From an uncultured Verrucomicrobiae bacterium (GTDB lineage Bacteria > Verrucomicrobiota > Verrucomicrobiia > Chthoniobacterales > UBA10450): a stretch of DNA of 64,000 nt. Location: the NCBI GenBank assembly GCA_963726745.1, contig CAVSDR010000006.1, positions 544,001-608,000 on the forward strand, given 5' to 3'. The translations under genes and the position numbers were made by a program. Shown here in pieces: positions 1-59,879 of the stretch. Below the pieces are notes generated by a model that did no database searches, was not told the origin of the DNA, and worked only from the letters and a program-made list of their open reading frames with translations. How positions within the stretch are numbered: the first letter of the stretch is position 1; the number at the start of each line of letters is the position of its first letter.

Positions 1-1067
1 TTAGGCCGGCGAAAGCCGGCGGTCGAGAGCGGCACGCGTTCGCCGATCCCGGCGCGGCGTTTCGCCACTTCGAACATGCTGGCTATTTGCTGCGCAAAGA
101 CGCCTTCGCCGGTCTGCCGCACGCCCCAGCGCGCGTCGTAGACCTTCCCGTCGCCGCCGCGCAAGTCGCGGATGCGGCCGAGGACTTTCTCCTTCCGCCC
201 GGGGAAGTGTTCCTCCAGCCAGCGCTCAAAAAGCGGCGCCACCGCCCAGGGCAACCGGAGCACGACATAGCCGGCAAACTTCGCCCCGGCCTCGCCGGAC
301 GCTTTCAAAATTGCCGGCACTTCGTGGTCGGTAATGCCCGGGATGATCGGCGCGACCATCACGCCGGCAGGCACGCCCGCGGCGTTCAATTGCGCGACCG
401 CCTCCAGCCGCGCTTCCGGCGAGGAGGTGCGCGGCTCGAGGATGCGCTGGAGCTTCCGGTCTAACGAGGTGATGGAAAGGTTGACCGCGATCGCCTGATG
501 TTCCGCCAGCCGGCGAAAGAGATCGAGGTCGCGCGTGACCAGCCGATTCTTGGTCACGATGCCGACCGGGTTGCGGAATTTAGCCAGCACTTCGAGGCAG
601 CGCCGGGTCAGCTCGAGCTTCCGCTCGATCGGCTGGTAGGGATCGGTCACGCCGCTCAGGACCACCGTCTGCGGCTTCCATTTTGGCGAGGAAAGCTCCG
701 CCTCGAGCAGCTCGGGCGCGCGCTCCTTGACCATGATCTTGCTTTCAAAATCGAGCCCGGCGGAGAAGCCGAGATACTCGTGCGTCGGCCGCGCGAAACA
801 GTAAGCGCAGCCATGCTCGCAGCCGCGGTATGGATTCACGCTCGTCTCGAAGCCAACGTCCGGACTCTGGTTGCGCGAGATGATTGTCTTCGTGCCGTCG
901 CGAAAAAATTGCGAACGCAACGGCGGCCGCTCCTCCTCGGCGCCCGGCTCCACTGGGTCGAGCTCGACCTGCAACGCCTCGAAACGATTGGCGATATTCG
1001 CCGAGGCGCCGCGGCCTTTCGCGGCCTGGGGCGCACTGGTGAACTCTGCGCGAACCGGACGAAACAT
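1..1067 (-). CDS. Radical SAM protein, PA0069/Rv2578c family (3' end runs off the window)
   Basis: Hand translation (not in ORF track): MFRPVRAEF...VNPYRGCEHGCAYCFARPTHEYLGFSAGLDFESKI (CxxxCxxC), SGVTDPYQPIE, ...STAGFRRP at the edge. Confidence 0.9.
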   Translation of the reverse strand, partial: MFRPVRAEFTSAPQAAKGRGASANIANRFEALQVELDPVEPGAEEERPPLRSQFFRDGTKTIISRNQSPDVGFETSVNPYRGCEHGCAYCFARPTHEYLGFSAGLDFESKIMVKERAPELLEAELSSPKWKPQTVVLSGVTDPYQPIERKLELTRRCLEVLAKFRNPVGIVTKNRLVTRDLDLFRRLAEHQAIAVNLSITSLDRKLQRILEPRTSSPEARLEAVAQLNAAGVPAGVMVAPIIPGITDHEVPAILKASGEAGAKFAGYVVLRLPWAVAPLFERWLEEHFPGRKEKVLGRIRDLRGGDGKVYDARWGVRQTGEGVFAQQIASMFEVAKRRAGIGERVPLSTAGFRRP

Positions 1068-1170
1068 CCCGTATGTTCAACTGAACGCACCACCCTGTCC
1101 AGCCGGCGGGGCAATGTTTTCCGCGCCCCGGAGTTGCCCGAAGCCCAAGTTCAACGGAGGGAAAAGAGTC

Positions 1171-2532
1171 ATGGCTAAAACCACCCCCGCCCGGAGCAAG
1201 GGATCCCTGAGCGTGCTCGCCCGGCGTTCGCCATTCACCCGCCAGGTGGTCTTGCCGGCGGAGAACTTCATCCACAGCGAATCGATCAGCGCGCTCTTCC
1301 TGCTCGCGGCCGCGATCATCGCCCTGGCTTGGGCGAACTCGCCCTGGGCGCACTCCTACTTCGGCCTGCTCGAGACCGTGATCACGGTGAAGGTCGGGCC
1401 GCTCGACATCACCGAGACGGTCCACCATTGGATCAACGATGGCCTGATGACGCTCTTCTTTTTCGTCGTCGCCCTGGAAATCAAGCGCGAGCTCGTGCGC
1501 GGCGAGCTTTCCTCAGTCAAAAAAGCCGCCCTGCCGCTGGCCGGCGCCTTCGGCGGCATGCTCGTGCCGGTGATCATTTTTCTTGGCTTTAACTACGGGA
1601 AGGCGGGCGCGCATGGCTGGGGCATTCCCATGGCGACCGACATCGCCTTCGCCCTCGGGGTGCTCGCGCTTCTCGGGAACCGCATTCCGTTTGCGCTGCG
1701 CGTGTTCCTCCTGGCTTACGCGATTGCCGACGACATCGGCGCGATCCTGGTGATCGCGGTTTTCTACACCAACCACATCTCATACGTCGCGCTCGCCTGG
1801 GGTGCGGCGATCATTTTCGCGATCCAATGCGCCCGCGTCGCCGGCGTGCGCGACATCCCGGTCTACATCATCCTCGGCGCGCTCCTCTGGGTGGCCGTGC
1901 TCGAGTCGGGCATCCACGCGACCATCGCCGGCGTGCTCCTTGGCTTCATGACTCCGGCGAGCGCCTGGTTCGGCGCGCGGGAATCCACCCAGCAGATTCA
2001 CGATGCGCTCCCGGGTCTGGAGGATTCGGTGCAACAAAAGGACTACCCGCGCACGCAGGCGATTCTCGGCGAACTGGAAGTGCTCACCCACCACACGGAA
2101 GCGCCGCTGGAGCGAATCGAGCGAATCATGCATCCGTGGACCAGCTTCCTGGTGTTGCCGATTTTCGCGCTCGCCAATGCCGGGGTCGCATTCTCCCCGG
2201 AGATGGCGCGCTCGGCTCTCTCCAGCCCGGTCACGCTCGGGATTGCCGCCGGCTTGCTCGTGGGAAAACTGTTTGGCCTAACGACCTTTTCCTGGCTGGC
2301 AGTGAAGCTGGGCGCGGCCTCGCTCCCGAATGGCGTCGGCTGGCGCCACATCTGGGGCACGGCTTTCCTCGGCGCGGTCGGCTTTACCGTCGCCATCTTC
2401 ATCAGCGGGCTGGCCTACGACGACGCCCGCATGGTCGACCAGGCCAAGATCGGCATCCTCGCGAGCTCACTCGTGGCCGCGGTCGTCGGCTGGCTTTTCC
2501 TGCGCTTCGCCGTGCCGCCCGCGCGGGAATAG
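1171..2532 (+). CDS. nhaA: Na+/H+ antiporter NhaA
   Basis: WINDGLMTLFFFVVALEIKRE, GWGIPMATDIAFALG, AIADDIGAI, GVGFT-like motif; ATG at 1171 preferred over the ORF start at 871. Confidence 0.95.
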   Translation: MAKTTPARSKGSLSVLARRSPFTRQVVLPAENFIHSESISALFLLAAAIIALAWANSPWAHSYFGLLETVITVKVGPLDITETVHHWINDGLMTLFFFVVALEIKRELVRGELSSVKKAALPLAGAFGGMLVPVIIFLGFNYGKAGAHGWGIPMATDIAFALGVLALLGNRIPFALRVFLLAYAIADDIGAILVIAVFYTNHISYVALAWGAAIIFAIQCARVAGVRDIPVYIILGALLWVAVLESGIHATIAGVLLGFMTPASAWFGARESTQQIHDALPGLEDSVQQKDYPRTQAILGELEVLTHHTEAPLERIERIMHPWTSFLVLPIFALANAGVAFSPEMARSALSSPVTLGIAAGLLVGKLFGLTTFSWLAVKLGAASLPNGVGWRHIWGTAFLGAVGFTVAIFISGLAYDDARMVDQAKIGILASSLVAAVVGWLFLRFAVPPARE

Positions 2533-2542
2533 CCGGCAACTT

Positions 2543-3844
2543 CTACTCGAAACGGAGCGCCTTCACCGGGTCGAGCCGCGCCGCGAAATAGGCCGGGATC
2601 AACGCGGCTAACGAGCAGATGAGGAACGCGCCGATGCAGATTACGGCGACGTCGTGCGGCACCACCTCCGCGGGAATCTGCGAAAATTGGTAGACCTGCC
2701 GCGGGAAGACTTCGATTCCAAACGTGCCGGAAAGCCATTGGCTGAATTCGTTCCGGAAACGGATCAGCGTCATCCCCAAACCCAGCCCGCTCAGCGTGCC
2801 GAACACGCCCACGACCATGCCCTGCGCCAGGAAAACCCAGACGATTTGCCAGATGTTTGCGCCGATCGCCTTCATGATCCCGATCTCGCGCGTCTTCTGC
2901 ACGGTCACGGTGATGAGCGTGTTCATGATCCCGAACGCCGCCACGATGATGATGAAAAAAAGCAGGAAGAACATCACCGTGCGTTCGAGCCGCACGGCTT
3001 CGAAATACTGCGAGTTCATGTCGATCCAGGTCTGCGCGTATTCCGGCGGCTTGAGGAATTTCGTGATCGATTGCTTCACGCTTTCGGCCGCATACGGGTC
3101 GACCGTCTTGACCGTGATCCCGTGGAGCGCGTCCTCCAGCCCGTAGAGTTCCTGCCCCACGTGCACTGGCACGAGCAGGAACTCCGAGTCATGCAGGTAA
3201 TGCCCGGTCTCGAAGATGCCGGTAATCGTCAGCTCCTTCGGCAGAACGACGTCGCGCAGTTGGTCGAGCGCGGCCTTGTCCGCCGCCGCGTCTTTCGACT
3301 CCAGCTTCTTCAAGCCGTCCATGATCTGGCTGAGATTTCCCGGCGAATAGACCGTCAGCTTGTCGCCTACATCAATCTGGAGTTTGCGCGCCAGTTCCAC
3401 TCCCAGAATCGCGTTGTCCCCCTCGAGGTCGAGCTTTCCGCGAATGATAAATTTAGCCAGCGGGATGACCTTCTCTTCCTCCTCCGGATCAATCCCACGG
3501 ATCAACGGCGCCAGCCGGCGGCTCTCGAATTCCACGATCACCGGACCTTGCACGTAGGGCGCGGTCGCGACCACGCCCGGCGTGTTCCGGATTTTCACCG
3601 TCAGGTCGCGCCAATCGCTCAGCACATCCTGCGTGCTCACGAGGATGTGCGCGTCGAAGTCGATCACCTTCTGCCGCAGCTCCCGGTCAAAGCCGGTCAT
3701 GACCGCGATCACGAGGATGAGCACGGTCACGCCCAGCGTCACCCCAAGCACGGAGATGAGCGTGATGATGGAAACGAAAGTCCGCTTCGGCCGCAGGTAG
3801 CGCAGCGCGAGGAAGAGGCTGAATGGCAGTTTCAAGTCGCGCAT
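2543..3844 (-). CDS. Lipoprotein-releasing ABC transporter permease, LolC/LolE (FtsX-like) family
   Basis: ALRYLR...VIAVMTGFD N-terminus, KTREIGIMKAIGA, PAYFAARLDPVKALRFE C-terminus. Confidence 0.9.
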   Translation of the reverse strand: MRDLKLPFSLFLALRYLRPKRTFVSIITLISVLGVTLGVTVLILVIAVMTGFDRELRQKVIDFDAHILVSTQDVLSDWRDLTVKIRNTPGVVATAPYVQGPVIVEFESRRLAPLIRGIDPEEEEKVIPLAKFIIRGKLDLEGDNAILGVELARKLQIDVGDKLTVYSPGNLSQIMDGLKKLESKDAAADKAALDQLRDVVLPKELTITGIFETGHYLHDSEFLLVPVHVGQELYGLEDALHGITVKTVDPYAAESVKQSITKFLKPPEYAQTWIDMNSQYFEAVRLERTVMFFLLFFIIIVAAFGIMNTLITVTVQKTREIGIMKAIGANIWQIVWVFLAQGMVVGVFGTLSGLGLGMTLIRFRNEFSQWLSGTFGIEVFPRQVYQFSQIPAEVVPHDVAVICIGAFLICSLAALIPAYFAARLDPVKALRFE

Positions 3845-3886
3845 ACCGTCCGCAGAAACGCGGGCGAAGCCAGCGCGGAAATCGGA

Positions 3887-4400: not shown

Positions 4401-4914
4401 GTGGCCGCGCAAGAGATGATCGCATTCTGGCTGCTTCCGGCGCCGGCGGAGCGCGCGGTTTTCGCGGCGCTCATCCGCGACTTCGCGCAACGCTGCGACG
4501 GCCCGGTCTTTGAGCCGCATCTCACCCTCGGCGGCGGGGAGCTCGAGGTTAAATTAGCCAGCGAGATGTTCGCAAAACTGCTGCCAGCGGCGCCGTTGGC
4601 ACTGGAGATTGAGCAGATCGGCTGGAGCGCGGAATACACGAAAACGCTGTTCGTCGGGTTCCGCCGCACGGCCGCCGTGGATGCGCTCAGCCGCGCAAGC
4701 GGCGGCGGCGGCGAGGAGTTCCAGCCGCACCTCAGCCTGCTCTACGCGCATCTGCCGGCCGCCCGGAAAGCGGAATTAGCCAGCGAGATCTCCCTTCCCT
4801 TTCACCCGCGTCCACTTCAACGCCGCGCAGATGATTCGCACGGAATTTCCCCTAACGAGCGGTGCGCAAGTCGAAGCCTGGCAAACGCTCGCGACCGGTC
4901 CGCTTTCCGGATGA
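4401..4914 (+). CDS. 2H-family cyclic phosphodiesterase (CPDase-like); frameshift near 4800
   Basis: Two HxT/S motifs (FEPHLTL, FQPHLSLLY); C-terminus continues in another frame (TRVHFNAAQMIRTEFPLTSGAQVEAWQ...*). Start uncertain (4377/4401/4416). Confidence 0.75.
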
Positions 4915-4996
4915 TGCGAGCATGACCGGCACCGACATCCTCCACCCAGACAAAGACTGACGGCCGCGCCGCTCCGGTCTAACTTCCCGGGAATTT

Positions 4997-6720
4997 ATGG
5001 ACGACATTGTGGGCATCGATCTCGGCACGACCAATTCGCTTATTGGTGTGATGGAAGCGGGCTTCCCGCTCCTGCTGGCGGATCGCGACGGGCGGCGGCT
5101 GACGCCTTCCGTGGTCCACTTTCCGAAGAGCGGCGCGCCGGTCGTGGGCCGCGCGGCGGAACGGATGCGCGTGCTCGACCCGGGGAACACGATCTACTCG
5201 ATCAAGCGCTTCATGGGCCTGCGCCCGGAGGAAATTTCCGCGACCGCGGCCGGCGTCGAATACTCGTTAGGCGAGCGCACGCCGGAAGAAATCTCCGCGC
5301 TCCTGCTCGCGAAATTGAAGGCGGACGCCGAGGCGGCGCTCGGGCGCAGCGTCAGCCGCGCGGTCATCACGGTGCCGGCGTATTTCAACGACGCCCAGCG
5401 CCAGGCGACGAAAACAGCCGGCGAATTGGCCGGCTTCACGGTCGAGCGAATCGTGAACGAACCAACCGCGGCCGCGCTGGCTTACGGTCTCGATAAACTC
5501 AAAAGCCGCGCAAAAATCGCGGTCTACGATTTTGGCGGCGGCACCTTCGACGTCTCGATCCTGGAGTTGAACCAAGGCCTCTTCGAGGTCCTCTCGACCA
5601 ACGGCAACACCCGTCTGGGCGGCGATGATATCGACCAGGCGCTCCTGGAGAAATTAGGCGACCAATCGAGCGCGCTGCGCGAAGCCGCGATCGCCGCGAA
5701 GCATCGTCTCTCGGAGGAGGAGACGGTCGCGATCGAGCTGCCGTTCCACCGCGGAACGGAGAGTTTTTCGCGCACGCTGACCCGCGCCGAACTGGAGGAA
5801 ATCGCGCGCCCGATCGTGGACCGCACCCGCGCGCATTGCCGCCGGGCGTTGGCCGACGCGAAGATTTCCGCCGGCGAACTCGACGAAGTCATCCTCGTCG
5901 GCGGAACCACGCGGATGCCGCTGGTGCAGCGGACGGTCGCAGGAAATTTTCGGCCGCGCGCCGAACCTTTCGCAGAATCCGGACGAAGCCGTCGCCCTCG
6001 GCGCGACCATTCAGGCCGGGATTCTCTCGGGCGCAATCAGCGACCTCGTGTTGCTCGACGTCACTCCGCTCTCGTTAGGCATCGAGACCTTCGGAGGATT
6101 AACCAGCGTGATCATCCCGCGGAATTCCACCATCCCGGTGAAAGCCGGCGAGATGTTTACCACCGCGGTGGCGAATCAGACGGCGATGCGGATCAAGGTC
6201 CTGCAAGGCGAGCGCGAGATGGCGCGGGACAACTGGCCGCTGGGCGAGATTCGAGCTCGAGTTCGCCCCGGCCCCGAAAGGCGTGGCCCGCGTGGGCGTG
6301 CAATTCGAGATCGACGCCAACGGCATCCTCCATGTGCTCGCGCGCGACACCCTCACTGGCCACGAGAAAACCGTGGAGATCAACAGTGCGGTCGATGTCT
6401 CCGACGAAGCGGTCGAGGCGATGCTGGCCGACTCCCTGGAACACGCTTTCGAGGACATGTCCGAGCGCGTCTGGACGGAGGCGAAACTGAAAGCCGACGA
6501 GTTGATCGCGGCGGTCGAGAGCGTTTTCGGAATTTTAGCCAGCGAGATCGACCCGGCGGAGAAGCAGCGGCTGGAGGAGTTGTTAGGCGAGGTGCGCACC
6601 GCCCTCGCCGCGGGGGAAGCGCAGCGCTTGAAGCGCGCCACGGCGACGCTCGACCAGGCAACCGAACCGCTGGCCGCGCGCCTGGTCGAGCGCGCGCTGG
6701 CCGCGGCTACGACTCGTTAG
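4997..6720 (+). CDS. Hsp70 family chaperone (DnaK/HscA-like); frameshifts near 5945 and 6250
   Basis: [72 protein letters not shown] spread over three frames. Confidence 0.9.
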
Positions 6721-8500
6721 GCGAAGCGGCCGGCGATGGGCTGGCCACGGGGGCGGCCACTTTAGCCAGCGCCTCGTCGAGGAGCTTCTTTTCCTCGAGG
6801 AAAAGCGGGCCCTTCTGCGCCGCCTCGAGATATTCCGCCGCCGCCGGCGGGTCGTTATTATCGAGATAAAGCAGGGCCACGTAGACCGCGGCATGCGGGT
6901 CGCGCAATTCCTCCTTGGGCAATTTGCCGACCACTTCCAGCGCCTCCGCAGTGCGGCCGGAGCTGTAGAGCGCAAAGGCATAGATGACTGCGGCGTGCGC
7001 ATCCTCCGGCGCGGCCTGGTAGGTCTCGCGCGCGACGCGCTGGGCTTCCTCGGTATTAGGAGCAAGCAGGAGCGCGAGGCGCGCGTAATTCCAAGCCAGC
7101 GGAAGCTCGCGCGGGGAACTTTCGTGCAGTTGCCGCGCGATCAGGAGGAGCTCCGGGAGATCGTTGGCGGCGCGGGCGTTGCGGTAGAGATTGTCGAGCG
7201 CTTCGCGACGCAGCGGCGGATTCCGGGCCACCCGCGTCCAGAGATTCTTCGCCTCCGCATTCAAATTCCAGCGACTGGCGAGCCGCGCGAGCGTGGCCTC
7301 GCGCTCGGGGGCGTCGGCAGCGGCCTTCTCGGCGGCGTGCCAAAGCGAATCGGCTTCCGCGCCCGCGCTCGCCTGCTGCGCCTGGCGGGCAGCGTAGGAT
7401 TGGTAGGCCAGCCGGAGAAATTCCGCATCGCCCCACTGGCCGCTGCGCGTCCAACGTTTTAAGCGGGACCAGTTTTTCAAGGCGGCGAAACTCTCCGCGA
7501 TCGCGACGGCCGCGGGCGGCTTCGCGGCCAGTTCGGGCGGCAATTTATCCGTCCACTTGAGCGCTTCCGCGGCGAGGCTGTTGCGGTTGAGCCACTCGAC
7601 CAGGGCGCCGACATCGGCCGGCGTGCGCGCCGCGACCGGCTTCACTTTTTCCAGGAGCGCGCTGAATTTTTTCTCGTCCAGCTTCCGGTAAAACTCGAGG
7701 CAGAGCAGGAGGTCGTTGAAGGTGACCTGCTGGGTCATCTGCAGGTCCTGCGCGAGACGGTCGGCGCGCTCGAGATCGTTTCGCTGGATGGCGTCGTTCA
7801 GAAGCGCGCGGATCGCGCCGGTGCGATAGCCAGCGACTTTGCTCAAACGCTCCAGCGTCTCGCGGGCGCGGGTGTTTTTCTCGGGATCAGGCGAACGCAC
7901 CTGGAGGACGGCGAGGTTGAACTGGTAGAGATCGTTGGCTGGTTCCTGCTGGACCGCGGCGGCGAAATGCTTCTCCAGTTCGCCATCGTTTCCCTGCGCG
8001 CGCGCCAGCCAGCCGGCGACAACATGGTAGGCCGCGCGGTCGCGCTCTTCCGGGCGCACGCGGTCGAGCGCGCGCGCGGCCACGTCGAGCTGACCAAAGC
8101 GCAGCGCGGCGGAGGCGAGGTTGAGCTGCGCCTCGGCATTGCCCGGCAGGATGCGCGCGATTTGCGCCCGCCAGGCGACCGTCTCGGCGCGGTTTTGCTT
8201 CTCCGTGGCGTCGGCTAAAATCTGGTAAGCCGGGAGCGACTCCGGCGAAACCCGGAGCATCTGGTGCGCGGCCCGGCTGGCGCCTTCGAGGTCGCCTTTT
8301 TCCTGCAGGGCAACGGCGCGTTGCAGCAGACGGCTTTGACGCCAGCCGGTGTAGGCGCGCGGCGCATAGGTGGTGAAAAGCAGGCCCAACCCCAAACCGG
8401 CGACGATCGCGAGCGCGTAAAGCAGGTAACGCGTGCGCGCGGCGAGAGCGTGTCGACTGCGCTTGCGTTTACGCCGAACGCGTCTGACCTCCTTTGCCAT
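6707..8500 (-). CDS. Membrane-anchored TPR-like helical protein
   Basis: Basic N-terminus plus one TM helix, then Ala-rich helical repeats ([23 protein letters not shown]); ATG at 8500. Confidence 0.7.
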
Positions 8501-9926: not shown

Positions 9927-11753
9927 CTAGGGCACCGGAGCCGGCTTCTCGCTCTTGCTCATGGTCGTGCGGGTGCTGTGGATCTTCTCGGCCAGCGCCT
10001 TGTTTCCCGGGTCGAGCGCGCTCGCTTTTTGCCAATATTCCAGCGCCTGCGGGATGCGATTCATTTTCGCATAAGTGTCGCCGATGTGCTCGAAGACCAC
10101 CGGATCGTCGTGCGAGATCGTCTGGGCCGCGCGCTGGAGATCGCGCAGCGCGTCCTCGTATTTCCCCTGGCGATACGAGAGCCAACCGCGGCTATCCAGA
10201 TAGGCACCGTTATCGGGATCGAGCTCGAGCGCTTTCCCGATCATTTCCGCGGCCTCGTCGAGACGCATGTTTTTATCCGCCCACATGAAGCCGAGATAGT
10301 TGTAAGCCTCGGCCGCTTTCGCCGGATCGAGCGCGATCGATTGGTGGAAAAGCTCCGCCGCTTTGTCGTAAAGCCCGGCCTGCTCCGCCGCCGCGCCGTA
10401 GTCGAAGTAGAAGCGCGCGTTCAGCATCTCGCCGGTGGCGGGCCCGGCCTCCTGGAGCGCTTCCTCGAAGGTGACCACGGCCTGCGCGGCGTGTTTCGCT
10501 TCGCGTTGCGCGATCGCGAGGAAGTAGCTGAACTCCGGCGATTGCGCGAAGCGTGCCCGCGCCTCGGTGAGGATGCGCTCGGCGCGCGCGGGATCGCGCA
10601 GCGGACTGATGAGCAACTCGGCCAGGCGCAGGTAGGTCTGGCCGCGGTTCGGATTGATCAGGAGACATTGCTCATAATTAGCCGCCGCTTTGGCGAATTC
10701 CGCCCGCGCTTCCTCGGTCTTCTTGGCGCGGAGGAGCGCGCGGCCTTCCTCGTCCTGAAGCTGCGCGAGCAATTCATAAGGCTGATATTTCTCCGGCGTT
10801 TCGGCGATGATTTGGCCGAGAAGCTCGATCGCTTTCGCGCGCTGGTTTGTGGCCGCGAAGCTGCTGGCTAATTTCTCCCGCACCTGCTGGTCGTCCGGCT
10901 GGAGCTCAAGCACGCGCAGGTAAAGCGGGATCGCCAAGGGAATTTGCTGCGAGGCGGCGTAGAAATCGGCCACCTCTTTGAGGATCGCCGGATCGTCGCC
11001 CGCGTGCTCGCTCGCGCGCTTGAAGATGGCGTCGACCCGCGAGAGGGCGGCGGGCGACTCCCCGGCTTCCGGCACGAGCAAGGTGGAGGCGAAGAGTTTG
11101 CCGAGCCGCGTCCAGAAGGTGGGGTTCGTGCTCGAAACCCGCGCAGCCCGCTCGAGCGTCTCCATCGCTTTCTCCGGATGGCCGCGGCCAAGCTCGATCT
11201 CGTAGATGCGCTGGTAGGCGTCGATATTTTCGGGGTCGAGCGCGAGCGCCTGGTTGGCGTACTTCAGCGCCGGCTCCGGCTTTCCAAGATAGCGGGCGTA
11301 GATGAAGGCAAGCTGGAGGAAAGGCGTGGTCTCGCGGCCGTTGGCCTTGATCGCATCGCGCAGGATATCGATCGCCAGCGGGAACTCCTCCTGCCGCACA
11401 AGGAGCGAAGCGACCCGCGAAGCGAGCTCGATCTCGCCCGGATCGACCGTGAGCACTTTCTGGTATTTCTCGAGCGCGTCCTCGACTTCCCCCGCTTCCT
11501 CGAGGCGCGCGCCCTCGACAAAATTAGCCAGCGCGTCGGCCTTGCGAATCGCGGCGGGCGCCAGCGCAAGGTCGGCCGCCGGCGGGAGCCGCAGGGAATC
11601 GTCGAGCTTTCCGCGCGCTCCCGGCAGCGACCGCACGGGCGCGGCGACCTGCTCCTTCGCCGGGCGCGACGGCCGGGCCTCGGCCATTCCGCCGAGCCCG
11701 AAAACGAGGGCCGCCGGAAGGAGAAACTGGACCGCGCGCGCGAGCCGATGCAT
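9927..11753 (-). CDS. Secreted tetratricopeptide repeat protein
   Basis: Signal peptide; several TPRs; AYNYLGFMWAD...LDPDNGAYLDSRGW signature. Confidence 0.85.
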   Translation of the reverse strand: MHRLARAVQFLLPAALVFGLGGMAEARPSRPAKEQVAAPVRSLPGARGKLDDSLRLPPAADLALAPAAIRKADALANFVEGARLEEAGEVEDALEKYQKVLTVDPGEIELASRVASLLVRQEEFPLAIDILRDAIKANGRETTPFLQLAFIYARYLGKPEPALKYANQALALDPENIDAYQRIYEIELGRGHPEKAMETLERAARVSSTNPTFWTRLGKLFASTLLVPEAGESPAALSRVDAIFKRASEHAGDDPAILKEVADFYAASQQIPLAIPLYLRVLELQPDDQQVREKLASSFAATNQRAKAIELLGQIIAETPEKYQPYELLAQLQDEEGRALLRAKKTEEARAEFAKAAANYEQCLLINPNRGQTYLRLAELLISPLRDPARAERILTEARARFAQSPEFSYFLAIAQREAKHAAQAVVTFEEALQEAGPATGEMLNARFYFDYGAAAEQAGLYDKAAELFHQSIALDPAKAAEAYNYLGFMWADKNMRLDEAAEMIGKALELDPDNGAYLDSRGWLSYRQGKYEDALRDLQRAAQTISHDDPVVFEHIGDTYAKMNRIPQALEYWQKASALDPGNKALAEKIHSTRTTMSKSEKPAPVP

Positions 11754-11926: not shown

Positions 11927-12012
11927 GGGTAGTGATCAGCCGGTCGGTTAACCGGGCCGCAATGCAAGCATCGGTTGGGAGGCTCCGCAACTGACTTCTT
12001 CAAGCTTGCTGG

Positions 12013-12492
12013 CTAAAGCGCGAGCGCTTTTCGGAGCAGGTCGACATGCTCTTCCGGCTTCACTTTGCGGAAGACCTCGGCGATCCGGCCCGCGTCATCG
12101 ATCACGAAGGTGCTCCGCTCCGCGCCCATGTATTTCTTGCCATACATGCTTTTCTCCACCCAAACGCCGTAAGCCTCCACGAGCGCGTGTTCCGGATCGG
12201 CCAGCAGCGGGAACGGAAGCGCGTGCTTGCCGATGAACTTCTCGTGGCTTGCGACCGAATCCGGGCTGACGCCGAAAAGCTCGGCCGCACCGTCGAGCTC
12301 GCCCCAGTGATCGCGCAGGCTGCAGGCCTGCACGGTGCAGCCGGGCGTGTCGTCCTTCGGATAAAAATAGAGCACCACCCGGCGCCCGCGGAAGTCGCCT
12401 AACGAGACTTCTTTGCCGGCGCCGTATTTCCCGCCGACGGCGGTCGCGCGGAACGGGGGCGCGGCATCCCCGGCTTTCAGTTCAGTGGCCAT
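12013..12492 (-). CDS. bcp: Peroxiredoxin Q/BCP (thioredoxin-dependent thiol peroxidase)
   Basis: VVLYFYPKDDTPGCTVQAC, YGVWVEKSMYGKKYMG.ERSTF. Confidence 0.93.
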   Translation of the reverse strand: MATELKAGDAAPPFRATAVGGKYGAGKEVSLGDFRGRRVVLYFYPKDDTPGCTVQACSLRDHWGELDGAAELFGVSPDSVASHEKFIGKHALPFPLLADPEHALVEAYGVWVEKSMYGKKYMGAERSTFVIDDAGRIAEVFRKVKPEEHVDLLRKALAL

Positions 12493-13622: not shown

Positions 13623-13844
13623 ATGACCGCACAACTCCTCCAGGAAGCCGCTACCGTGATCCCGAATCAGCAGTTGCTGATCAACGTCGTTTCCAAACGT
13701 GTGCGTCAACTCGGGCTGGGACATCGCCCGTTGGTCGAGGCGACCCCGCGCGCCTCGCTCACCGACATCGCGCTCAAGGAAATCATTGCCGGCAAGCTCA
13801 CCTTTGAATTGATCGCGGACGACGTCGAGCCGGCCGCGGCCTGA
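13623..13844 (+). CDS. rpoZ: RNA polymerase omega subunit
   Basis: LLINVVSKRVRQL...DIALKEIIAGKL; 73 aa. Confidence 0.85.
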   Translation: MTAQLLQEAATVIPNQQLLINVVSKRVRQLGLGHRPLVEATPRASLTDIALKEIIAGKLTFELIADDVEPAAA

Positions 13845-26215: not shown

Positions 26216-26491
26216 ATGAACTCTGCGCCTCCTGCCTATTCCCCGCCTGTGGTTACCGAAGCGGTCGCCTATCGGCGCGCCCACGCCGGCAAGCTCATGG
26301 TCATCCAGCGCGCCGAGGGGCGGGACCTGGTCGCAGCCGACTTTTTCCAGTTCGACTCCGTCGGCACTCACCCGACTGGCCTCTTCGTGACCGGCCTCTT
26401 CGGCGATGCGAAACTCCGGCACATGCTCTCCTCCACCGTGCGGCCCGCCTCCAACGACGAGATCGCCTGGCATAGCCAACAGGCTGGCTAA
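26216..26491 (+). CDS. Hypothetical protein (91 aa)
   Basis: ATG downstream of GAGAG, GC3-rich codon usage, fills the gap between genes. Confidence 0.55.
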   Translation: MNSAPPAYSPPVVTEAVAYRRAHAGKLMVIQRAEGRDLVAADFFQFDSVGTHPTGLFVTGLFGDAKLRHMLSSTVRPASNDEIAWHSQQAG

Positions 26492-26503
26492 ATTTTAGCC
26501 AGC
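26483..26503. repeat. Perfect inverted pair of the TTAGCCAGC motif (GCTGGCTAAA-T-TTTAGCCAGC)
   Basis: 10-bp arms around one base, overlapping the TAA stop of 26216-26491. Confidence 0.8.
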
Positions 26504-41002: not shown

Positions 41003-41019
41003 CCAGCGCTTTCTCTCCC

Positions 41020-48265: not shown

Positions 48266-51200
48266 CTAAGCCGTGCGCCCGCAGCAGGCCTTGAACTTTT
48301 TCCCGCTGCCGCACGGGCAAGGATCGTTCCGGCCGACCTTCGGCATCTCGCGGCGCAACGGCGCCAGCTCGAGCTTCACTTCGTTGTCGCTCTCGCCATT
48401 CTCCGCGCGGCCGCCGTTCTCGCCGAAAGGCTCGCGCCGCCCGGGCGCGGGACCATCGGCGGTCGGCGCGGTGGGTGCGTGTTCGCGCATGAGGAATTGC
48501 GGGAGCGTCGAGAGAAAGGTCTCGAAAGCCTGCAAGTTCGAGGTGCTGCGGAAGAGATTATGCAGCACTTCGTTCTTAATGTTCGCCATCAACTCGGTGA
48601 ACATGTCGAACGCCTCGGTCTTGTATTCGATCAGCGGATCCTTCTGCGCGTAGCTTCGGAGGTAAACACCCTCGCGCAGCGCATCCATCGCGTAGAGATG
48701 CTCCTGCCAGAGGCGGTCGATCGCGTTCAGGATGATGTAGCGCTCCAGGCCCTTGACCGCGGCCGGCTCTTCGTGGCTCGACTTGCGCTCGTAGCTGTCC
48801 TTTACCTTCTCGATCAGGAACTGCGCGTTCGCTTCCTCGGAGCGGCCTTCGAATTCCGCTTTCTCGCTCGTTAGGCCGAGCGGGAAGGTGGTGTTCACCC
48901 AATGCAGGAGGCCGGCGTAATTCGGCTCGTTGGTTTCGCCGGAAGCGAGCTGCTCCTTGACCTTCGCGGGAATGGCTTCGTCGATCACCTCGTAGATCAG
49001 GCGGCGCGGCTCATCCGTCTCGATCGCGTCGTTGCGCCAGGCGTAGACCACCTCGCGCTGGTTGTTCATCACGTCGTCAAAATCGAGCGTGCGTTTGCGC
49101 GCGAGATAGTTCCGCTGCTCGACCCGCTTTTGTGCGGTCTCGACCGATTTGTTGAGCCACGGATGCTCCAGCTCCTGGCCTTCCTCGAGGCCGAAACGCT
49201 CCATGATCTTGGTCATGCGATCGGCCGCGCCGAAGTTGCGCATCAGATCGTCCTCGAAGCTGACGTAAAAGCGCGAGCCGCCGGGGTCGCCCTGGCGGGC
49301 GCAACGTCCGCGCAGCTGCCGATCGATGCGGCGCGACTCGTGTCGCTCGGTGCCGATGACGAACAAGCCGCCGGCTTCCTGCACGCCCGGCCCGAGCTTA
49401 ATGTCGGTGCCGCGGCCGGCCATGTTCGTCGAGATGGTGACCGTGCCCGCCTGCCCGGCGCGCTGCACGATCTCGGCCTCCTGCCGATGGTATTTCGCAT
49501 TCAGCACATTGTGCGGAATCTTCTCGCGCTTGAGCATGCGCGAGAGCAATTCGCTCGCTTCCACGCTCACCGTGCCCACGAGCACCGGCTGCGACTTCGC
49601 GTGGCGCTCTTTGATTTCGTTGATGACCGCGTTGTATTTCTCGCGGCGCGTTTTGTAGATCCGGTCGTTCTCGTCCTTGCGCGCGATCGGGCGATTCGTC
49701 GGGATCGCGTTCACGTCCAGCTTGTAGATGTCGTGAAACTCCGAGGCCTCGGTCTCGGCGGTGCCGGTCATGCCGGCTAATTTTTGATAGAGCCGGAAGT
49801 AATTCTGGATCGTGATCGTCGCCAGCGTCTGCGTTTCGCGATCGATCTGCACGCCTTCCTTCGCCTCGACCGCCTGGTGCAGGCCATCGCTCCAGCGGCG
49901 GCCCGGCATTTTGCGGCCGGTGTATTCGTCCACGATCACGACCTTGTTTTCCTCGACCACGTACTGCACGTCCTTCTCGAAGAGGCAGTAGGCGCGGAGG
50001 AGCTGGGAGATGTTGTGAATCCGCTCGCCCTGCGCGTCACAAATCCGCTGGCGCTCGGCTTTCTCCTTTTCCTTCTCCTCGTCGGAGAGCGTGCGATTCA
50101 AATCGATCTCGGTGAACTCGCTGATTAAATCCGGGAGCACGAAGGCGTCCGGCTCGTCGGGATTGAGGAAGGCGCGGCCCTGCTCCGAGAGATCGGACTC
50201 GTTCGACTTCTCGTCGATCGTGAAAAAGAGCTCTTCCTTGAGCGCGAAGAGTTCTTCCTTGCGCGAGTCCTGGAAGAACTGGAGCTCGGCCTTGTCCATC
50301 GCCCGGCGTTTCTCCGGGTCTTCCATCATGCGCAGGAGCTGCTTGTTCCGCGGCTGCCCGAGCTTGACCTTGAACATCAGGAGCCCGCCATCTTCGGTTT
50401 TGCCCGCCTCGAAAGCCGCCTTCGCTTCGCTCGCAAAACGGTTCACCAGCATGTTTTGCTTCCGCACGAGCTGCTCGGTCAGCGGCTTCCACTTGTCGTA
50501 TTGGTGCGTCGAGACCGTCGCCGGGCCGCTGATGATCAAAGGCGTGCGCGCTTCGTCGATCAGGATGGAATCGACCTCATCGACGATCGCAAAGTGATAG
50601 CCGCGCTGGACCTGCTGCTCGCGAGTCGTGGCCATGCCGTTGTCGCGCAGGTAATCGAAACCGAACTCCGAGTTCGTCCCGTAGGTGATGTCCATCGCAT
50701 ACTGCTGCCGGCGGACATCGGGCGGCTGATCGTGCTGGATAATGCCTGTCGTTAGGCCGAGGAAACCGTAGAGCTGTCCCATCCACTCGGCGTCGCGCCG
50801 GGCGAGGTAATCATTCACCGTCACCAGGTGCGCGCCGCGGCCGGTGAGAGCATTCAGATAAAGCGGCAAGCGTCGCCACCAGCGTCTTGCCTTCGCCCGT
50901 GGCCATCTCCGCGATCCGCCCGCGATGGAGCACGATCCCGCCGACTAATTGCACGTCGAAATGCACCATCGCCCAGTTCATCGGCTGGTCGCAGACGGTG
51001 AATTCCGCCTGCCGTTCGGTCAGGCGGCGCGCGCCGTTTTTCACCACCGCAAAAGCTTCCGGCAAAATCTCGTCGAGCCGTTTCCAGCGATCGTCTGGGT
51101 CCTCTATGTCCCGCAGCTCGGCCTGCCACTGCGCCGTCTTGGCGCGGAGGTCATCGTCCGAGAGCGACTTGAATTGCTCATCCAATTCGTTGATGCGACG

Positions 51201-51870: not shown

Positions 51871-52440
51871 GTGAGCCAGGATCTCCTCGCCCTCTTCCGC
51901 CAAACCGGCGCGCTGCTTGACGGTCATTTCGTCCTGCGTTCCGGCTTGCATAGCCGGCAGTTTTTCCAGTGTGCCCTGCTCCTGCAGCACACCGGGATTG
52001 CCGCCGAGGTTTGCGGGCAATTAGCCGACAAGCTGCGCGACATCCCGGCTGATGCCGTCATCTCGCCGGCACTTGGCGGGATCGTCGTCGGCCAGGAAGT
52101 CGGCCGCTCGTTAGGCAAGCGTCACATTTTCGCGGAGAAAAACGATGCCGGCGGGCTGGTCCTGCGCCGCGGTTTCCAGATCGCGCCCGGCGAGCGCTTC
52201 ATCGTCGCGGAGGATGTGGTCACGCGCGGCGGACGCGTGCAGGAGACGGTCGACATCGTCCGCCAACACGGCGGCGTGGTCGCGGCCGTGGGGGTGATCG
52301 TGGACCGCAGCGGCGGGCAACATCCGGACTTTGGCTGCCCTTTCGTCAGCCTGGTGGAGATGAACGTCGAGACTTTCGAGGCCGACAAGTTGCCGCCTGA
52401 TTTAGCCGGCACTCCCGCGGTCAAGCCCGGGAGCAAGTAG
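51871..52440 (+). CDS. pyrE: Orotate phosphoribosyltransferase
   Basis: GHFVLRSGLHS, PALGGIVVG, IVAEDVVTRGG, IVDRS. Confidence 0.95.
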   Translation: MSQDLLALFRQTGALLDGHFVLRSGLHSRQFFQCALLLQHTGIAAEVCGQLADKLRDIPADAVISPALGGIVVGQEVGRSLGKRHIFAEKNDAGGLVLRRGFQIAPGERFIVAEDVVTRGGRVQETVDIVRQHGGVVAAVGVIVDRSGGQHPDFGCPFVSLVEMNVETFEADKLPPDLAGTPAVKPGSK

Positions 52441-54204
52441 CTCCTCGATTCGCGCCCGCATCCGTTCCCCCGCGGCTGCCGGCGCCAGGAGCACGCGCAT
52501 TTCCTCCGCCGCGCGTTCACCGATCGCGCGCGCGGCCGCGCGATTCTGGAAGACCCAGCGCATCAGCCGCGCGGCGTGATCCTCACTCGGCTCCGCCCAG
52601 CGGTAGCCCTGCCGGTAAATCCCGCCGTCCTCCGCGATCGGCACCAACTCGTAATCCACCAGCAGGCTGTTCTGCGCGTTCATGAACGCGGTGTTTCCGG
52701 AGTAATTCGTCGCGATCACCGGCTTTCCGAGCAGCATCGCTTCCGCCAGCACCAGGCCGAAACCTTCCGAGCGATGGAGCGAGACCAGGCAATCAGCCAG
52801 CGAGATGTAACCGCAGGCCCGGGGGCGCGTGGTCACTTCATCGACGAGGACGATCTTCGCCGCGCCCGCTTCCTCGCGCAGCCGCGCGAGATTGGCCGCA
52901 TCGTAGGACCCACGGCTGACCTTGATCACGAGCGTGGCCGCATCCTCCGGCCCGAAGACGCGCTGGAAGGCGCGCACCACCGCGAGCGGATTCTTTCGGC
53001 GAAAGTCGCTCGCCATGTCGAAGAGAAACAGGAAGACAAACTCGCCCGGATCGAGCCCGAGCTCGGCGCGCGAGATTTCTTCCACCTCCGGCAGGGCCAC
53101 GGGCGGCAGGAGTTCGCGCACCGGCACGGTCAGCTGCGTGCGCAAGGCCTCGGCCACGAAAGGCGTCGGCGCCCAGACCTCGTCCAGTTCCTCTGCGAGC
53201 GGTGCCCACTCCGCTGGGATCGCATCCAGTTCCCAGGCCCAATACGCGATCTGCACCCGGGCGCGCCGCGGCAAGCCGGCGCGTTGGTAGCGCACGGCAA
53301 AATGCGGCTCCGGCGCGACGTTCGTGATCGTGACCGGGAAGTCCTCGAAGCCGAGATACGCGGTCCGCGGCGCCAATTCCGTGCGCACCCCGGTGGGCAC
53401 ATCTCGCCGGCTAATTTCGAAGCCCGCCGTCTCGAGGGCCGCGGCCGCCTCCACTGCCGCCTGGCGAATGCCCGAGCTGTAGCAAAAGTGGCTCAGGAAA
53501 TTCACCCCCGCCCGGTTGGCCGACGACTCGTTAGGCGCGAGCGGCGGGAGCGTTTTCACCGCGCGCAGCGGCGCGTATTTCGGAAATTCCGCGTGCAGCC
53601 ACGCGAGCAAGCCAGAGGCGTCCGTGCGCGCCTCGGGGAAGCGCTCCTGCCAGTCCGGCAGGATCAAATAGGTGAGCGCGATGTGCCGTGGGAGGTCCTC
53701 TGCGGTCGCGTGGAGAAACCAGAGAATCTCCTCGTCCGAGCAGCCATGTTCCGCGCGGCCTTTGCCCACGAGCCATTTTGCGAAGCGCTTCTGCCCCACT
53801 GGCAGGAGGCCCAACGGGTAACGCCACTGCACCTCCGGCGTGTGCAGGAAAAACTCGCGCAAGGCCGCGCCCGGGTCGGCGGGGAAAGCGCTGCCTAAAT
53901 TCGCCGCGGTGGAAGAGGGCAGCTTCAACTCCCGCGCGCCCTCGCCTTTCAACCATTCGCGGTAGGCCGGGTCGCCCACGACCGCGCGCGGAAAGCGTTT
54001 CCGCAAATCCGGCCGAGAGCGTAACAATCCGAGGAGAAAACGCGGAGCGGTCGCGGCGCTTCCAGCATCCGAGGGCGACCAGCGGCCGAAAGCCAGTCCG
54101 CGCGTGTCGACCAGCGCAGTCATGGTGCGCTCATGATAGATGTCGAAGAGGTCGGAGGGCGCTTCCGGGACCTCGGTGCGGCGGAGAAATTTGGGTAATC
54201 GCAT
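52402..54204 (-). CDS. Glycosyltransferase family 4 (GT-B)
   Basis: YWAWEL, DEVWAPTPFV, FDMAS..RRKNP, SLHRSEGFGLVLAEAMLLGKPVIATNYSGN. Confidence 0.88.
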   Translation of the reverse strand: MRLPKFLRRTEVPEAPSDLFDIYHERTMTALVDTRGLAFGRWSPSDAGSAATAPRFLLGLLRSRPDLRKRFPRAVVGDPAYREWLKGEGARELKLPSSTAANLGSAFPADPGAALREFFLHTPEVQWRYPLGLLPVGQKRFAKWLVGKGRAEHGCSDEEILWFLHATAEDLPRHIALTYLILPDWQERFPEARTDASGLLAWLHAEFPKYAPLRAVKTLPPLAPNESSANRAGVNFLSHFCYSSGIRQAAVEAAAALETAGFEISRRDVPTGVRTELAPRTAYLGFEDFPVTITNVAPEPHFAVRYQRAGLPRRARVQIAYWAWELDAIPAEWAPLAEELDEVWAPTPFVAEALRTQLTVPVRELLPPVALPEVEEISRAELGLDPGEFVFLFLFDMASDFRRKNPLAVVRAFQRVFGPEDAATLVIKVSRGSYDAANLARLREEAGAAKIVLVDEVTTRPRACGYISLADCLVSLHRSEGFGLVLAEAMLLGKPVIATNYSGNTAFMNAQNSLLVDYELVPIAEDGGIYRQGYRWAEPSEDHAARLMRWVFQNRAAARAIGERAAEEMRVLLAPAAAGERMRARIEELLAPGLDRGSAG

Positions 54205-57691: not shown

Positions 57692-58522
57692 AGTCTCGCA
57701 CGGCGTGCGTCCAGAGTTCCGGGTCGAGCTCCGCACGGGCGCGCTCGGCTAACGAGTCGCTCTCGGCTCCGTCGCGCAACACCGCCATCATGGTCGCGCC
57801 GGAACCCGACATCATCGCCGACGCCCACTTCCGGTTGCGCCCGGAGCCAGCGCTTCATCTCCGCGAGGAAGACGTATTTCTCGAAGACCGGACGCTCGAG
57901 ATCATTCACGAAGGTGATTCCGCCAAACTCCTGCGGCGCGGTAATCGATTCCCGCTCAGTTCACGCGAATCGCGCCAGCGGCTGTAAGCCCAGGGCGTGG
58001 GCACGCCGAACTCCGGCTTAAGCAGGAGCAGCCGGAAATTAGCCGGCAACTTCACCGGCTCGACCTGCTCCCCGCGCCCGCGGCACCGCGCCGCCGAGCG
58101 AAAGAGGAAGAACGGCACATCGGAGCCCAGCTCCGCGGCCATCTCCGTCAATTTCTCGTTAGGCAGACCGGCTTCGCAAAAGCTCATTCAAGCCCAGCAG
58201 CGTGCTCGCGGCGTCGCTGCTCCCGCCGCCGAGCCCGGCGCCGTGCGGGATGCGTTTCTCCAGATGGATCTTCACCCCGCCGCGTGAGCGGAAAAAGCCG
58301 CGCCGCGCGGACGACAAGATTATCCTCGCCCGTGGAAAGCGAGGGGTCGTCGCAGGTGAATTCAAGGCCGCTCGCGGTCCGCTCAAGCGTGAGCCTGTCG
58401 AAAAGCGAGACCGGCGCCATCAGCGTCTCGATTTCGTGAAAGCCATCGTCGCGCCGCCGCAAAATGCGGAAGGAAAGATTGACCTTCGCCGGCGCCCGAA
58501 GCTGCATAAGTTCGCCTTCCAT
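57624..58522 (-). CDS. ispE: 4-diphosphocytidyl-2-C-methyl-D-erythritol kinase; several frameshifts, 3' end uncertain
   Basis: [43 protein letters not shown] found in successive frames. Confidence 0.85.
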
Positions 58523-58527
58523 AACGA

Positions 58528-59232
58528 ATGAACTTCACCGAGACAACTGCGCGCGAACGTTTGATCATCGCGCTCGACCTGCCGAACGCCGCGGAGGCGA
58601 TCGCGCTGGCGGAGGAACTGGCGGGCGCGGTCACGCATTTCAAGATCGGCCTGCAGCTCTACACCGCCGCCGGGCCGGAGATTGTGCGCGCGATCGCCGC
58701 GACCGGCGCAGAAATTTTCCTCGACCTGAAATTGCACGACATCCCGAATACGGTTGCGAAGGCGGTGAGCGCGGCTGCGGAATTGCGGGTGAAAATGCTC
58801 ACGCTCCACTTGAGCGGCGGGCGGCGAATGCTCGAGGCGGCCGCAGCGGCCGCACCGGCTGATTTGCTCTTGTTAGGCGTGACCGTGCTCACGAGTTCGG
58901 ACGAAGCCACCCTGCGCGAGACGGGAGTCCATTCGACCGTCGAGGAACAGGCCATCCGGCTGGCTAATTTGGGCGCAGCGGCGGGCATCGGCGGCTTGAT
59001 CGCGAGCCCGCACGAAGTCGTGGCTTTGCGGAAACAGTTGGCCAAACCAATGACCATCATCACGCCCGGAGTCCGCCCGGCGTGGGCGGCGGCGGACGAC
59101 CAAAAGCGGTTCACCACCCCGCGCGAGGCGTTGGAAAACGGCGCCGACTTTCTCGTCATCGGACGGCCGGTAACCGCGCAGGCCGACCCGCGCGCGGCGG
59201 TGGAAAAGATCGCGCGCGAGATTGCCGGCTAA
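58528..59232 (+). CDS. pyrF: Orotidine-5'-phosphate decarboxylase
   Basis: LIIALD, FLDLKLHDIPNTV, GVTVLTS, TPGVRP...DDQKR, VIGRP. Confidence 0.97.
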   Translation: MNFTETTARERLIIALDLPNAAEAIALAEELAGAVTHFKIGLQLYTAAGPEIVRAIAATGAEIFLDLKLHDIPNTVAKAVSAAAELRVKMLTLHLSGGRRMLEAAAAAAPADLLLLGVTVLTSSDEATLRETGVHSTVEEQAIRLANLGAAAGIGGLIASPHEVVALRKQLAKPMTIITPGVRPAWAAADDQKRFTTPREALENGADFLVIGRPVTAQADPRAAVEKIAREIAG

Positions 59233-59237
59233 TTTCG

Positions 59238-59879
59238 ATGGAGCTCGCCGCGCTCGACGTTTATCCGGAGGAAACGCCTGGCTCGGCCGCGCGGCACATG
59301 GCGCTCGACGAAGCGCTGCTCCGGACCACCGACGTCCCGGCGTTGCGCTTCTACCGCTGGCGCGCCCCGGCGGCTTCGTTCGGTTACTTCAGCCGTTACG
59401 CGGAGGTCGAAGCGCTCGCGGCCGGGCGCGAGTTGGTGCGCCGCTGGACCGGCGGCGGGATCGTGCTGCATGGCGAAGACCTGACTTACGCCTTCGTGCT
59501 TCCGCGCAGTGCGCTGCGCTCGCGGGTGATCTACGAAGCGGTCCACCGGGCGATCTGTGCGGCGCTCGACGGACGAGCCGCGCTGGCCGCCGCCGCGGCG
59601 CCCCGAGTTTCCGACGCCTGTTTCGCCAACCCGGTCGCGGCGGACGTGCTCCTCGACGGCCGGAAGGTCGCAGGCGCGGCGCAGCGGCGGACGCGCACCG
59701 GCCTCCTGCAACAGGGCAGCATCCAGGGGGTGAAGTTGCCGGCTAATTTCCCGGAGGCTTTCGCACGCGCGCTCTGCCCGGAATTCAAAACCCGCAGCTT
59801 TTCCGAGGAGACGCAGGCGCTGGCGGAAAGCCTGGAGGCGGAAAAATATGCGAGTCTGGCGTGGCTGCGCGCACGTTAA
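59238..59879 (+). CDS. Lipoate-protein ligase family protein (LplA/LipM-like)
   Basis: MALDEALL, LRFYRW, VRRWTGGGIVLH, CF...DV...GRKVAGAAQRR, LQQGSI. Confidence 0.88.
   Translation: MELAALDVYPEETPGSAARHMALDEALLRTTDVPALRFYRWRAPAASFGYFSRYAEVEALAAGRELVRRWTGGGIVLHGEDLTYAFVLPRSALRSRVIYEAVHRAICAALDGRAALAAAAAPRVSDACFANPVAADVLLDGRKVAGAAQRRTRTGLLQQGSIQGVKLPANFPEAFARALCPEFKTRSFSEETQALAESLEAEKYASLAWLRAR

Follow-up and report, generated by a model that had tools for sequence, protein, structure and literature searches.

Why does one nine-base word recur across a stretch of bacterial chromosome, and what, if anything, reads it? The window, a 64,000-nucleotide stretch of the genome of an uncultured Verrucomicrobiae bacterium (Chthoniobacterales), contains TTAGCCRGC 27 times (15 on the plus and 12 on the minus strand, spanning 580 to 59746), against 0.81 in dinucleotide shuffles (maximum 3, n=100). 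These are the counts given by an earlier sequence-only reading, which had expected about one copy.

Plus-strand copies lie at 580–588, 6535–6543, 6762–6770, 11524–11532, 15679–15687, 19864–19872, 25769–25777, 27105–27113 and 58039–58047, and minus-strand copies at 10863–10871, 27313–27321, 38089–38097 (posterior 0.85), 58959–58967 and 59738–59746. Another is antisense in a lolE-like gene (3453–3461, +), and one lies in secA (49772–49780, −), where congeners differ synonymously. Two copies form a divergent pair over a common A/T run (26483–26503; 26483–26491 on the minus and 26495–26503 on the plus strand). Frame arithmetic on the coordinates bears out the earlier view that the core is sometimes read as a stop, both at 40999–41007 (+), whose TAG ends the frame 39125–41002, and at 52402–52410 (+), which overlaps the stop of a GT4 gene on the minus strand; stop codons are also overlapped at 12008–12016 (−) and at 59224–59232 (−, the stop of 58528–59232). 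The Ile-Ser-Arg translation that had been proposed holds in the thrB-like gene (34943–34951, −) and in the GT4 gene (53406–53414, −), but not in the 2H-phosphoesterase gene (4401–4925), where both copies (4554–4562 and 4776–4784, both +) encode Leu-Ala-Ser. The remaining match (19091–19099, −), one of the 27, was assigned by a mixture model to a first word, M1, whose left arm stands on the same TAG.

A genome-wide profile of the second word, M2, accepts 56 sites on both strands of the window (85 to 62539), 30 of them beyond the cores above, anchored at 85, 2530, 3369, 5655, 7827, 8217, 10679, 19006, 21083, 22021, 22482, 22593, 26473, 30263, 34705, 36323, 37974, 38656, 40785, 42921, 43452, 46534, 50947, 52022, 53897, 54646, 56244, 56683, 61723 and 62539. 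For the looser ATAGCCRGC class that had been pointed out, a first position of either T or A yields 38 copies against 1.71, with 8 of the 11 extra copies accepted by the profile. Interleaved with M2 are 53 M1 sites (2 to 62902), which belong to a separate system.

Genome-wide, TTAGCCRGC occurs 797 times on all 7 contigs (162–245 per Mb), the M2 profile finds 2,698 sites (~2,700), and strict M2 copies number 578 and 589 on the two strands. Within called genes, the 9-letter core is present 619 times against 55 after synonymous shuffling and 97 after context resampling, and a 15-letter M2 pattern 873 times against 14 and 25, respectively (8 replicates each). The sequence-only reading had named uninformative flanks, or no enrichment over a codon- and dinucleotide-preserving null, as results that would speak against it; we found informative flanks and an enrichment of 35–60-fold over codon-preserving nulls. 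The base profile is alike in five reading frames and at 282 intergenic M2 sites, which argues against a peptide effect, in a comparison that is partly circular because sites were chosen by profile. That M2 is an artefact of codon usage, repeat elements or assembly is hardly credible against such nulls, even though the assembly contains frameshifts and a 12.8 kb stretch that is present twice (C1/C6); the 9 M2 sites in this stretch, where 2 of 108 core columns are mismatched (2.6% overall), are too small a sample to judge strain-level conservation. Further evidence against an artefact is that related words occur in independent assemblies and that, of 2,326 M2 contexts, only 309 match any other over 35 bases, most of these matches being short, with 76–86% identity. 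REP/MITE or other inserted repeats were rejected, as flanks are not common to the copies and comparison with relatives gives no insertion signal.

M2 is a graded, non-palindromic word of 18–20 bp and roughly 19 bits, extending the recognition site of about 15–17 bp that had been suggested. The nine-base core is its commonest form, but three core positions were over-specified and the actual site is more degenerate: it is not TAG that is invariant but two C's at a distance of three bases. As described earlier, an A/T run precedes the core, and T occupies the 14th position in 82% of cores genome-wide. The profile has a rough two-fold symmetry around a central C-purine step; the T that would complete a palindrome is rare (0.05 among cores unselected at that position), perfect 10-base palindromes number 7 in the genome, and the profile is asymmetric, so M2 is not a strict palindrome of the HIP1 type. 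A hairpin reading was rejected, mirror positions showing no covariation beyond neighbour effects, and so was a likeness of the left arm to the KorB operator, which gave 0 full matches.

Methyltransferase targets are unlike words of this length, gradation and asymmetry, which makes it very improbable that a HIP1-like methylation or repair process generates M2 around a methylated base. Such an origin has been proposed for HIPs (PMC4390886), and it would suit both the two near-invariant C's and the conservation of an orphan SPPY-type methyltransferase (C3:981 kb), but this enzyme is also found in the M2-poor genome G185, and a C5 methyltransferase was found only in the present genome, in an atypical region. 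HIP1 of cyanobacteria itself is, like M2, hyper-abundant and mostly genic, with a function argued from genome statistics (PMC5861425 and PMC4390886), whereas its 8 bp form a strict palindrome for which methyltransferases have been named, and M2 has no co-occurring methyltransferase that we could find.

Alignments with relatives are gapped at 8 of 204 M2 sites, compared to 3.8% in the control; M2 copies arose by substitution, not insertion. Amino-acid identity is 0.71 within sites and 0.77 in flanks, and is lower within sites in 5 of 6 relatives, placing M2 at less conserved, permissive codons; lower protein conservation within sites is likewise reported for USS and DUS (PMC2817400). M2 density, at 7.2–7.6 per 10 kb in typical windows, falls about threefold, to 2.3, in 9 windows below 59% GC, our proxy for islands or recently acquired DNA. 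Any slow process encoded by the host could account for both the scarcity in islands and the placement at permissive codons, which counts against a reading specific to DNA uptake.

Along the chromosome, M2 is uniform (variance/mean of 0.9 in 10 kb windows) and consists of thousands of sites, not of tens held within or kept out of one domain as with matS, Noc, SlmA or parS; the domain restriction raised earlier as an alternative to uniformity is absent. Plus and minus copies number 715 and 747 in negative-skew blocks and 238 and 239 in positive-skew blocks (the genome has only weak GC skew), extending to the whole genome the argument from balanced orientation against a polar Chi/KOPS-type role, which we reject. 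The rRNA region, taken as a whole with gene bounds unmapped, is not depleted (5 M2 sites in 5.9 kb). A promoter role was rejected because no upstream peak appears save in one same-strand bin (−20 to 0), a signal that may come from overlap with stop codons.

The first word, M1 (GCCTAACGA), has a density similar to that of M2 and the same 300 bp self-avoidance; the two words have only TAG in common, and their rigid cores differ. Relative to a block-preserving null, M2–M2 pairs are reduced to 0.55 at 30–100 bp, 0.67 at 100–200 bp and 0.75 at 200–300 bp (z of −5.2, −6.0 and −3.3), and M1–M1 pairs to 0.37, 0.64 and 0.71 at the same distances, whereas M1–M2 cross pairs, at 1.13, 1.05 and 1.11, show no mutual avoidance, and five control word sets lie mostly at or above 1. 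M2 is thus a new second word, spaced independently of M1. M1 sites that also carry the M2 right arm number 154 of 2,209, with about 18 expected from generic context. M1 is above control in 34 of 34 genus genomes and starts attC-like repeats, in which we saw no M2 by eye; an integron integrase was sought by tblastn with XerD, which gave XerC/XerD only. At orthologous positions in congeners, M2 is kept in 6 of 209 cases and M1 in 38 of 189. Taken together, the self-only avoidance, the near-absent orthologous retention and a patchy enrichment among relatives suggest that M2 is a younger layer than M1, probably read by a factor of its own.

We give an even chance to the reading that M2 is a second uptake-sequence-like 'self' tag, marking the DNA of kin for uptake and built up by biased DNA acquisition. 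Fragments bearing M2 would be preferentially acquired and recombined, so that M2 accumulates, through a sequence-preferring factor separate from that of M1 and most plausibly a component of the type IV pilus/ComEC route of DNA uptake. Two M2 copies within about 300 bp would sit on the same fragments, the second adding less, and the lack of M1–M2 avoidance suggests that the two words may feed separate channels or steps. In Haemophilus, a second USS within 100 bp gives no extra uptake (PMC7811141). Against this reading, the self-avoidance of M2 is only partial: full redundancy would put close pairs far below 0.55.

The same self-avoidance would also fit a shared sliding range of an abundant intracellular DNA-binding protein, such as a nucleoid organiser or a recombination/repair loader, with sites about one per few hundred bases written by selection, a reading that we consider unlikely. 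It is favoured by the graded 19-bit profile with its rough two-fold symmetry, by the lack of terminator bias and the presence of M2 in the rRNA region, and by the case made for HIP1 that it is periodic and under selection (PMC5861425). It is disfavoured by the rarity of the palindrome-completing T, by the lack of any domain or replichore pattern, and by the candidate proteins: the genomes G000 (the present one), G011, G036 and G185 have one ParB each and G015 has two, which gives no extra ParB in G000, and a winged-helix-like pair (C3:581048/C2:186183) is present in 5 of 5 genomes tested, with both copies in 4, M2-free genomes included. A housekeeping role is also ill-suited to the spread of M2 among relatives.

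Of 325 family genomes, 4 are clearly enriched in M2 (G000, G011, G015 and G036), and their right arms differ; the signal is weaker in G017, G057 and G158, and roughly 315 of the family are M2-poor. None of 300 other genomes of the phylum is enriched. Related words with a common left arm in G011, G015 and G036 are dialects around one core, that of G036 coming from an unpublished genome. On a secA tree the enriched genomes are scattered patchily over at least three lineages. What looked like a third word in G053 turned out to be low-complexity sequence in tandem. In the literature searched, outside which most subscription papers lie, we found no report of a word of this type in Verrucomicrobia.

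A patchy, lineage-jumping spread would suit a mobile driver, and the same drive by another transfer route, in which packaging by phages or gene-transfer agents, or nicking by a relaxase, starts at M2-like sites, would likewise predict an origin by substitution and scarcity in islands. We nevertheless regard this as quite improbable, as the 300 bp scale is short for packaged or conjugated DNA and crude signature patterns revealed no packaging or relaxase gene.

For the uptake reading, the gene content speaks on both sides. The present genome encodes ComEC, ComM, DprA-like and PilB/C/T-like proteins, with 13 pilin-motif and 3 secretin matches, while evidence against uptake comes from competence genes that occur also in M2-poor or M2-free kin (G053, which has ComM and secretins, shows neither M1 nor M2 over the 60 kb that were read), from the failure to find an intact full ComEA-like HhH protein in G000, and from a recA split over two frames in an assembly with many frameshifts. 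The scarcity of terminator pairs and the absence of rRNA-region depletion weigh against it too, as does the finding that no candidate protein tried as M2 reader tracked M2. A PilX-like gene (C6:624655) has its nearest matches in G015, G018 and G002 (68–71%), but also at 71% in M2-free G053, and G036, G011, G017 and G158 have no close match; a FimT-like gene (C3:1034137) has a close match only in M2-poor G220. Ssn-like small GIY-YIG proteins were not found in G000 or G015 apart from a UvrC-type match.

By membership, M2 is not DUS/USS, HIP1, Chi/KOPS or matS. The letters of USS are, to our knowledge, unrelated to M2, and USS, like DUS, has terminator pairs and is scarce in rRNA genes, whereas M2 forms few such pairs: of 30 close divergent pairs genome-wide, 20 lie inside genes and 6 near a 3' end. 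Also unlike USS, M2 coexists with a second independent word and is known here from sequence alone, with no receptor found. Nonetheless, the USS of Pasteurellaceae resembles M2 in its density (~1 per kb), its occurrence on both strands, its G+C core with A/T segments, its origin by point mutation and its scarcity in newly acquired DNA (PMC7811141). The DUS of Neisseriaceae, with its ComP receptor, shares with M2 species-specific variants around a common core (PMC3630211), although by eye we saw no core common to M2 and the published DUS forms. DUS dialects track the core-genome tree, whereas M2 is patchy, and the two DUS dialects of Simonsiella muelleri are one base apart, whereas M1 and M2 differ in rigid cores and are spaced independently.

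Sequence-tagged DNA uptake is established in two families, Neisseriaceae and Pasteurellaceae, with one tag family each. Tentatively, and with less confidence than in the tag itself, we propose two sequence-gated acquisition channels, an old, family-wide M1 and a young M2 with a mobile reader that would have reached at least three lineages and rewritten thousands of codons in each, in a dialect peculiar to it; self-avoidance over 300 bp may then reflect the size of naturally exchanged DNA pieces. A younger, unrelated tag atop an older one would be a natural experiment on selfish drive versus selection for kin recombination, and a layer present in few relatives and absent from hundreds also bears on the beginnings of a new specificity. 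As a genomic test, the self-only spacing rule costs little and is applicable to DUS, USS and HIP1. Should the reader of M2 be intracellular instead, the word would point to a novel DNA-binding system with an imprint on the codons of a whole proteome.

The second iterated word, M2, occurs in its commonest form TTAGCCRGC 27 times in the window (15 on the plus and 12 on the minus strand), just as the sequence-only reading had counted, against 0.81 in dinucleotide shuffles, and a looser core class occurs 38 times where 1.71 are expected. The window lies at C6:544001–608000 of the source genome, G000 (3.41 Mb in seven contigs, C1–C7, ~64% GC). By eye its 16S gene is that of a member of the Verrucomicrobiota, and homologues of a conserved G000 protein carry the label Chthoniobacterales. 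G000 holds 1,167 copies of a 15-letter M2 pattern and 16 of the reversed pattern. Within its 3,028 genes, approximate calls made with a purpose-built hexamer model on an assembly containing frameshifts, the pattern occurs 873 times against 14 and 25 under two codon-preserving nulls, an excess on which the sequence-only reading had made its proposal depend.

A mixture model of all 26,137 TAG contexts in G000 split out two words without prior input on either: M1, the first iterated word (~2,200 sites), with its information left of TAG, and M2 (~2,700 sites), whose profile carries 19 bits, in line with the longer recognition site suspected earlier. M2 consists of three to four A/T-rich bases and TAG, followed by C (in ~64%), C, two purines, C and a purine; the distal part reads A/C, any base, A/T, T and C/G. 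Leave-one-out comparison with synonymous shuffles shows the two C's fixed at 99–100%, the late T at 85% and each TAG letter at only 75–80%, so that TAG-anchored M2 counts are a lower bound; the M1 core is rigid in the same test. The M2 profile is similar across five frames and intergenic DNA, a partly circular comparison, and its TAG serves as the stop in 158 genes. Among called genes genome-wide, stops are most often TAG (1,078/3,028) and leucine is encoded by TTA more than twice as often as by CTA; M1 and M2 account for part of both biases. A six-base unit with ~145 copies of each rotated 12-mer is probably one long tandem array.

The number of M2 sites per 50 kb stays level along six contigs, on either strand, which answers for uniformity the earlier question of clustered or uniform sites, and M2 strand is independent of GC skew, in keeping with the doubt already voiced about a polar Chi/KOPS-type role. 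High-confidence sites number 2.3 per 10-kb window below 59% GC (9 windows) and 7.2 at 63–65% GC (392 windows); several of the long gaps coincide with glycosyltransferase or otherwise atypical regions, and others with ordinary genes. No promoter peak was found relative to called genes in G000, close divergent pairs are about twice as frequent as chance but few (n = 30, 20 of them within genes), and the 5.9 kb rRNA region contains five sites.

Compared with orthologous positions in a relative, G015, M2 sites are gapped in 8/204 cases against 3.8% of control windows, and most of the changes are synonymous or conservative; in 5/6 relatives the sites have a lower amino-acid identity than their flanks. 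A methylation-repair process giving rise to M2 seems to us highly improbable. By core-only scores, M2 is kept at 6/124 positions in G015 and 0/85 in five others, and M1 at 25/115 and 13/74 elsewhere. A looser whole-profile score gives 26/196 M2 sites kept in G015 against 3/88 in M2-poor loci, so that a little site sharing between G000 and G015 is possible. These comparisons cover 400 kb from G015 and 60 kb from each of the other genomes. M2, rarely kept where M1 often is, is thus the younger layer.

The 15-letter pattern exceeds control in only 3/201 family genomes (G000 1,167, G036 189, G015 78). Across 325 family genomes, the match/control ratio of a 10-letter core is 10.7 in G000, 4.6 in G011, 2.3 in G015 and 2.2 in G036, ~1 in G017, G057 and G158, and below 0.85, mostly 0.3–0.55, in all others. 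No level comparable to the enriched genomes was found among 300 other phylum genomes, where core ratios reach ~1.9 at fewer than 100 matches and one genome has 17/4. M1 exceeds control in 34/34 genus genomes. G011 has the core and lacks the distal arm; the dialect of G036, an unpublished genome, has a more specific right arm, with 0 M1 9-mers in 88 kb of loci that had been chosen for M2. A secA tree (1.5 kb, 31 genomes), weak at deeper nodes, places G011 and G015 within a clade of support 100, with G000 outside; the unpublished G001, G008 and G222 are counted in the tallies, G001 and G222 also in the tree.

Spacing was compared with a null of 60 draws that preserves the number of sites in each 20 kb block. 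Observed versus null pairs at 30–100, 100–200, 200–300 and 300–400 bp are 83 vs 150, 144 vs 214, 161 vs 213 and 204 vs 214 for M2–M2, 39 vs 105, 95 vs 148, 106 vs 150 and 139 vs 148 for M1–M1, and 286 vs 253, 381 vs 363, 396 vs 358 and 378 vs 353 for M1–M2. Self-avoidance is present in all three pair orientations; five control word sets and non-motif TAG sites mostly give ratios of at least 1. This shows that each word has diminishing returns over ~300 bp, towards its own kind only, from which we infer two separately read systems. Spacing leaves the place of reading unspecified; an intracellular DNA binder reading M2 is a possibility we hold distinctly less probable than biased acquisition of M2-bearing DNA.

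G000 carries an unbroken ComEC, ComM, a DprA-like gene (signature match only), PilB/C/T-like genes (by eye and signature), 13 pilin-motif matches and three secretin matches; recA is split over two frames (C6:172,199–172,988), and where relatives have a nuclease-HhH fusion, G000 has the nuclease portion and a short stretch of HhH at separate places. M2-poor genomes carry the same machinery, and none of the candidate reader genes examined tracked M2 presence across the genomes compared. Another transfer route behind M2 is improbable in our estimate.

Several further observations concern these genes and the assembly. Three separate minor-pilin tip-like clusters lie at C3:584 kb, C6:624 kb and C3:1,033 kb, and a PilX-like family, very patchy in the family, reaches several paralogues per genome. 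An orphan SPPY-type DNA methyltransferase (C3:981,251–982,042) is present in 5/5 genomes tested with partly common neighbours; the most depleted tetramers of the whole genome are two palindromic ones (0.16 and 0.28 of expectation). A small Verrucomicrobia protein has two paralogues (C3:581,048 and C2:186,183), one adjoining a xer recombinase gene, and Atlas puts it close to the E2F/DP winged-helix domains at a score of 0.90, no more than a lead. Six attC-like repeats of 123–124 bp, each beginning with the M1 word, lie outside the window at C6:736,500–744,900, and one more at C4:150,942; no integron integrase was found in the assembly. Many genes besides recA are split in frame, in the window apparently a dnaK-like and an sdhA-like one, probably through assembly error, and a 12.8 kb stretch present twice at 97% identity (C1:1–12,776 and C6:1,022,417–1,035,158) is probably explained by a bin that mixes two strains. 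Type I methyltransferase fragments at the ends of two contigs (C4:371,575–373,000 and C6:484–1,458), with a DarT-like gene (named by eye) between them, suggest that a defence island joins C4 and C6. The window also holds a gene of the radical-SAM family that ends near 1067 (region 557–1067) and an rpoZ-like gene (13623–13844) with a 61% alike paralogue at C3:1,083,995.

Searches of paper texts and abstracts turned up no report of the M2 word, though bioRxiv supplements may name more such over-represented words; comparison drew on PMC7811141, PMC2397512, PMC5861425, PMC3630211, PMC12378983, PMC2817400, 10.1101/2025.10.24.684340, PMC11893778 and PMC4390886. Despite its uptake-sequence-like behaviour, M2 belongs to neither DUS nor USS, the known uptake sequences of Neisseriaceae and Pasteurellaceae. 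Few terminator pairs, sites in the rRNA region and merely partial avoidance fit biased acquisition less well. M2 behaves like an uptake sequence in most of the respects that could be tested, and we see an even chance that it is the product of biased acquisition, in which M2-bearing DNA would be taken up preferentially and copies would accumulate; this would account for the substitution origin, permissive placement, depletion in low-GC islands, lack of polarity, dialects and short-range self-avoidance.
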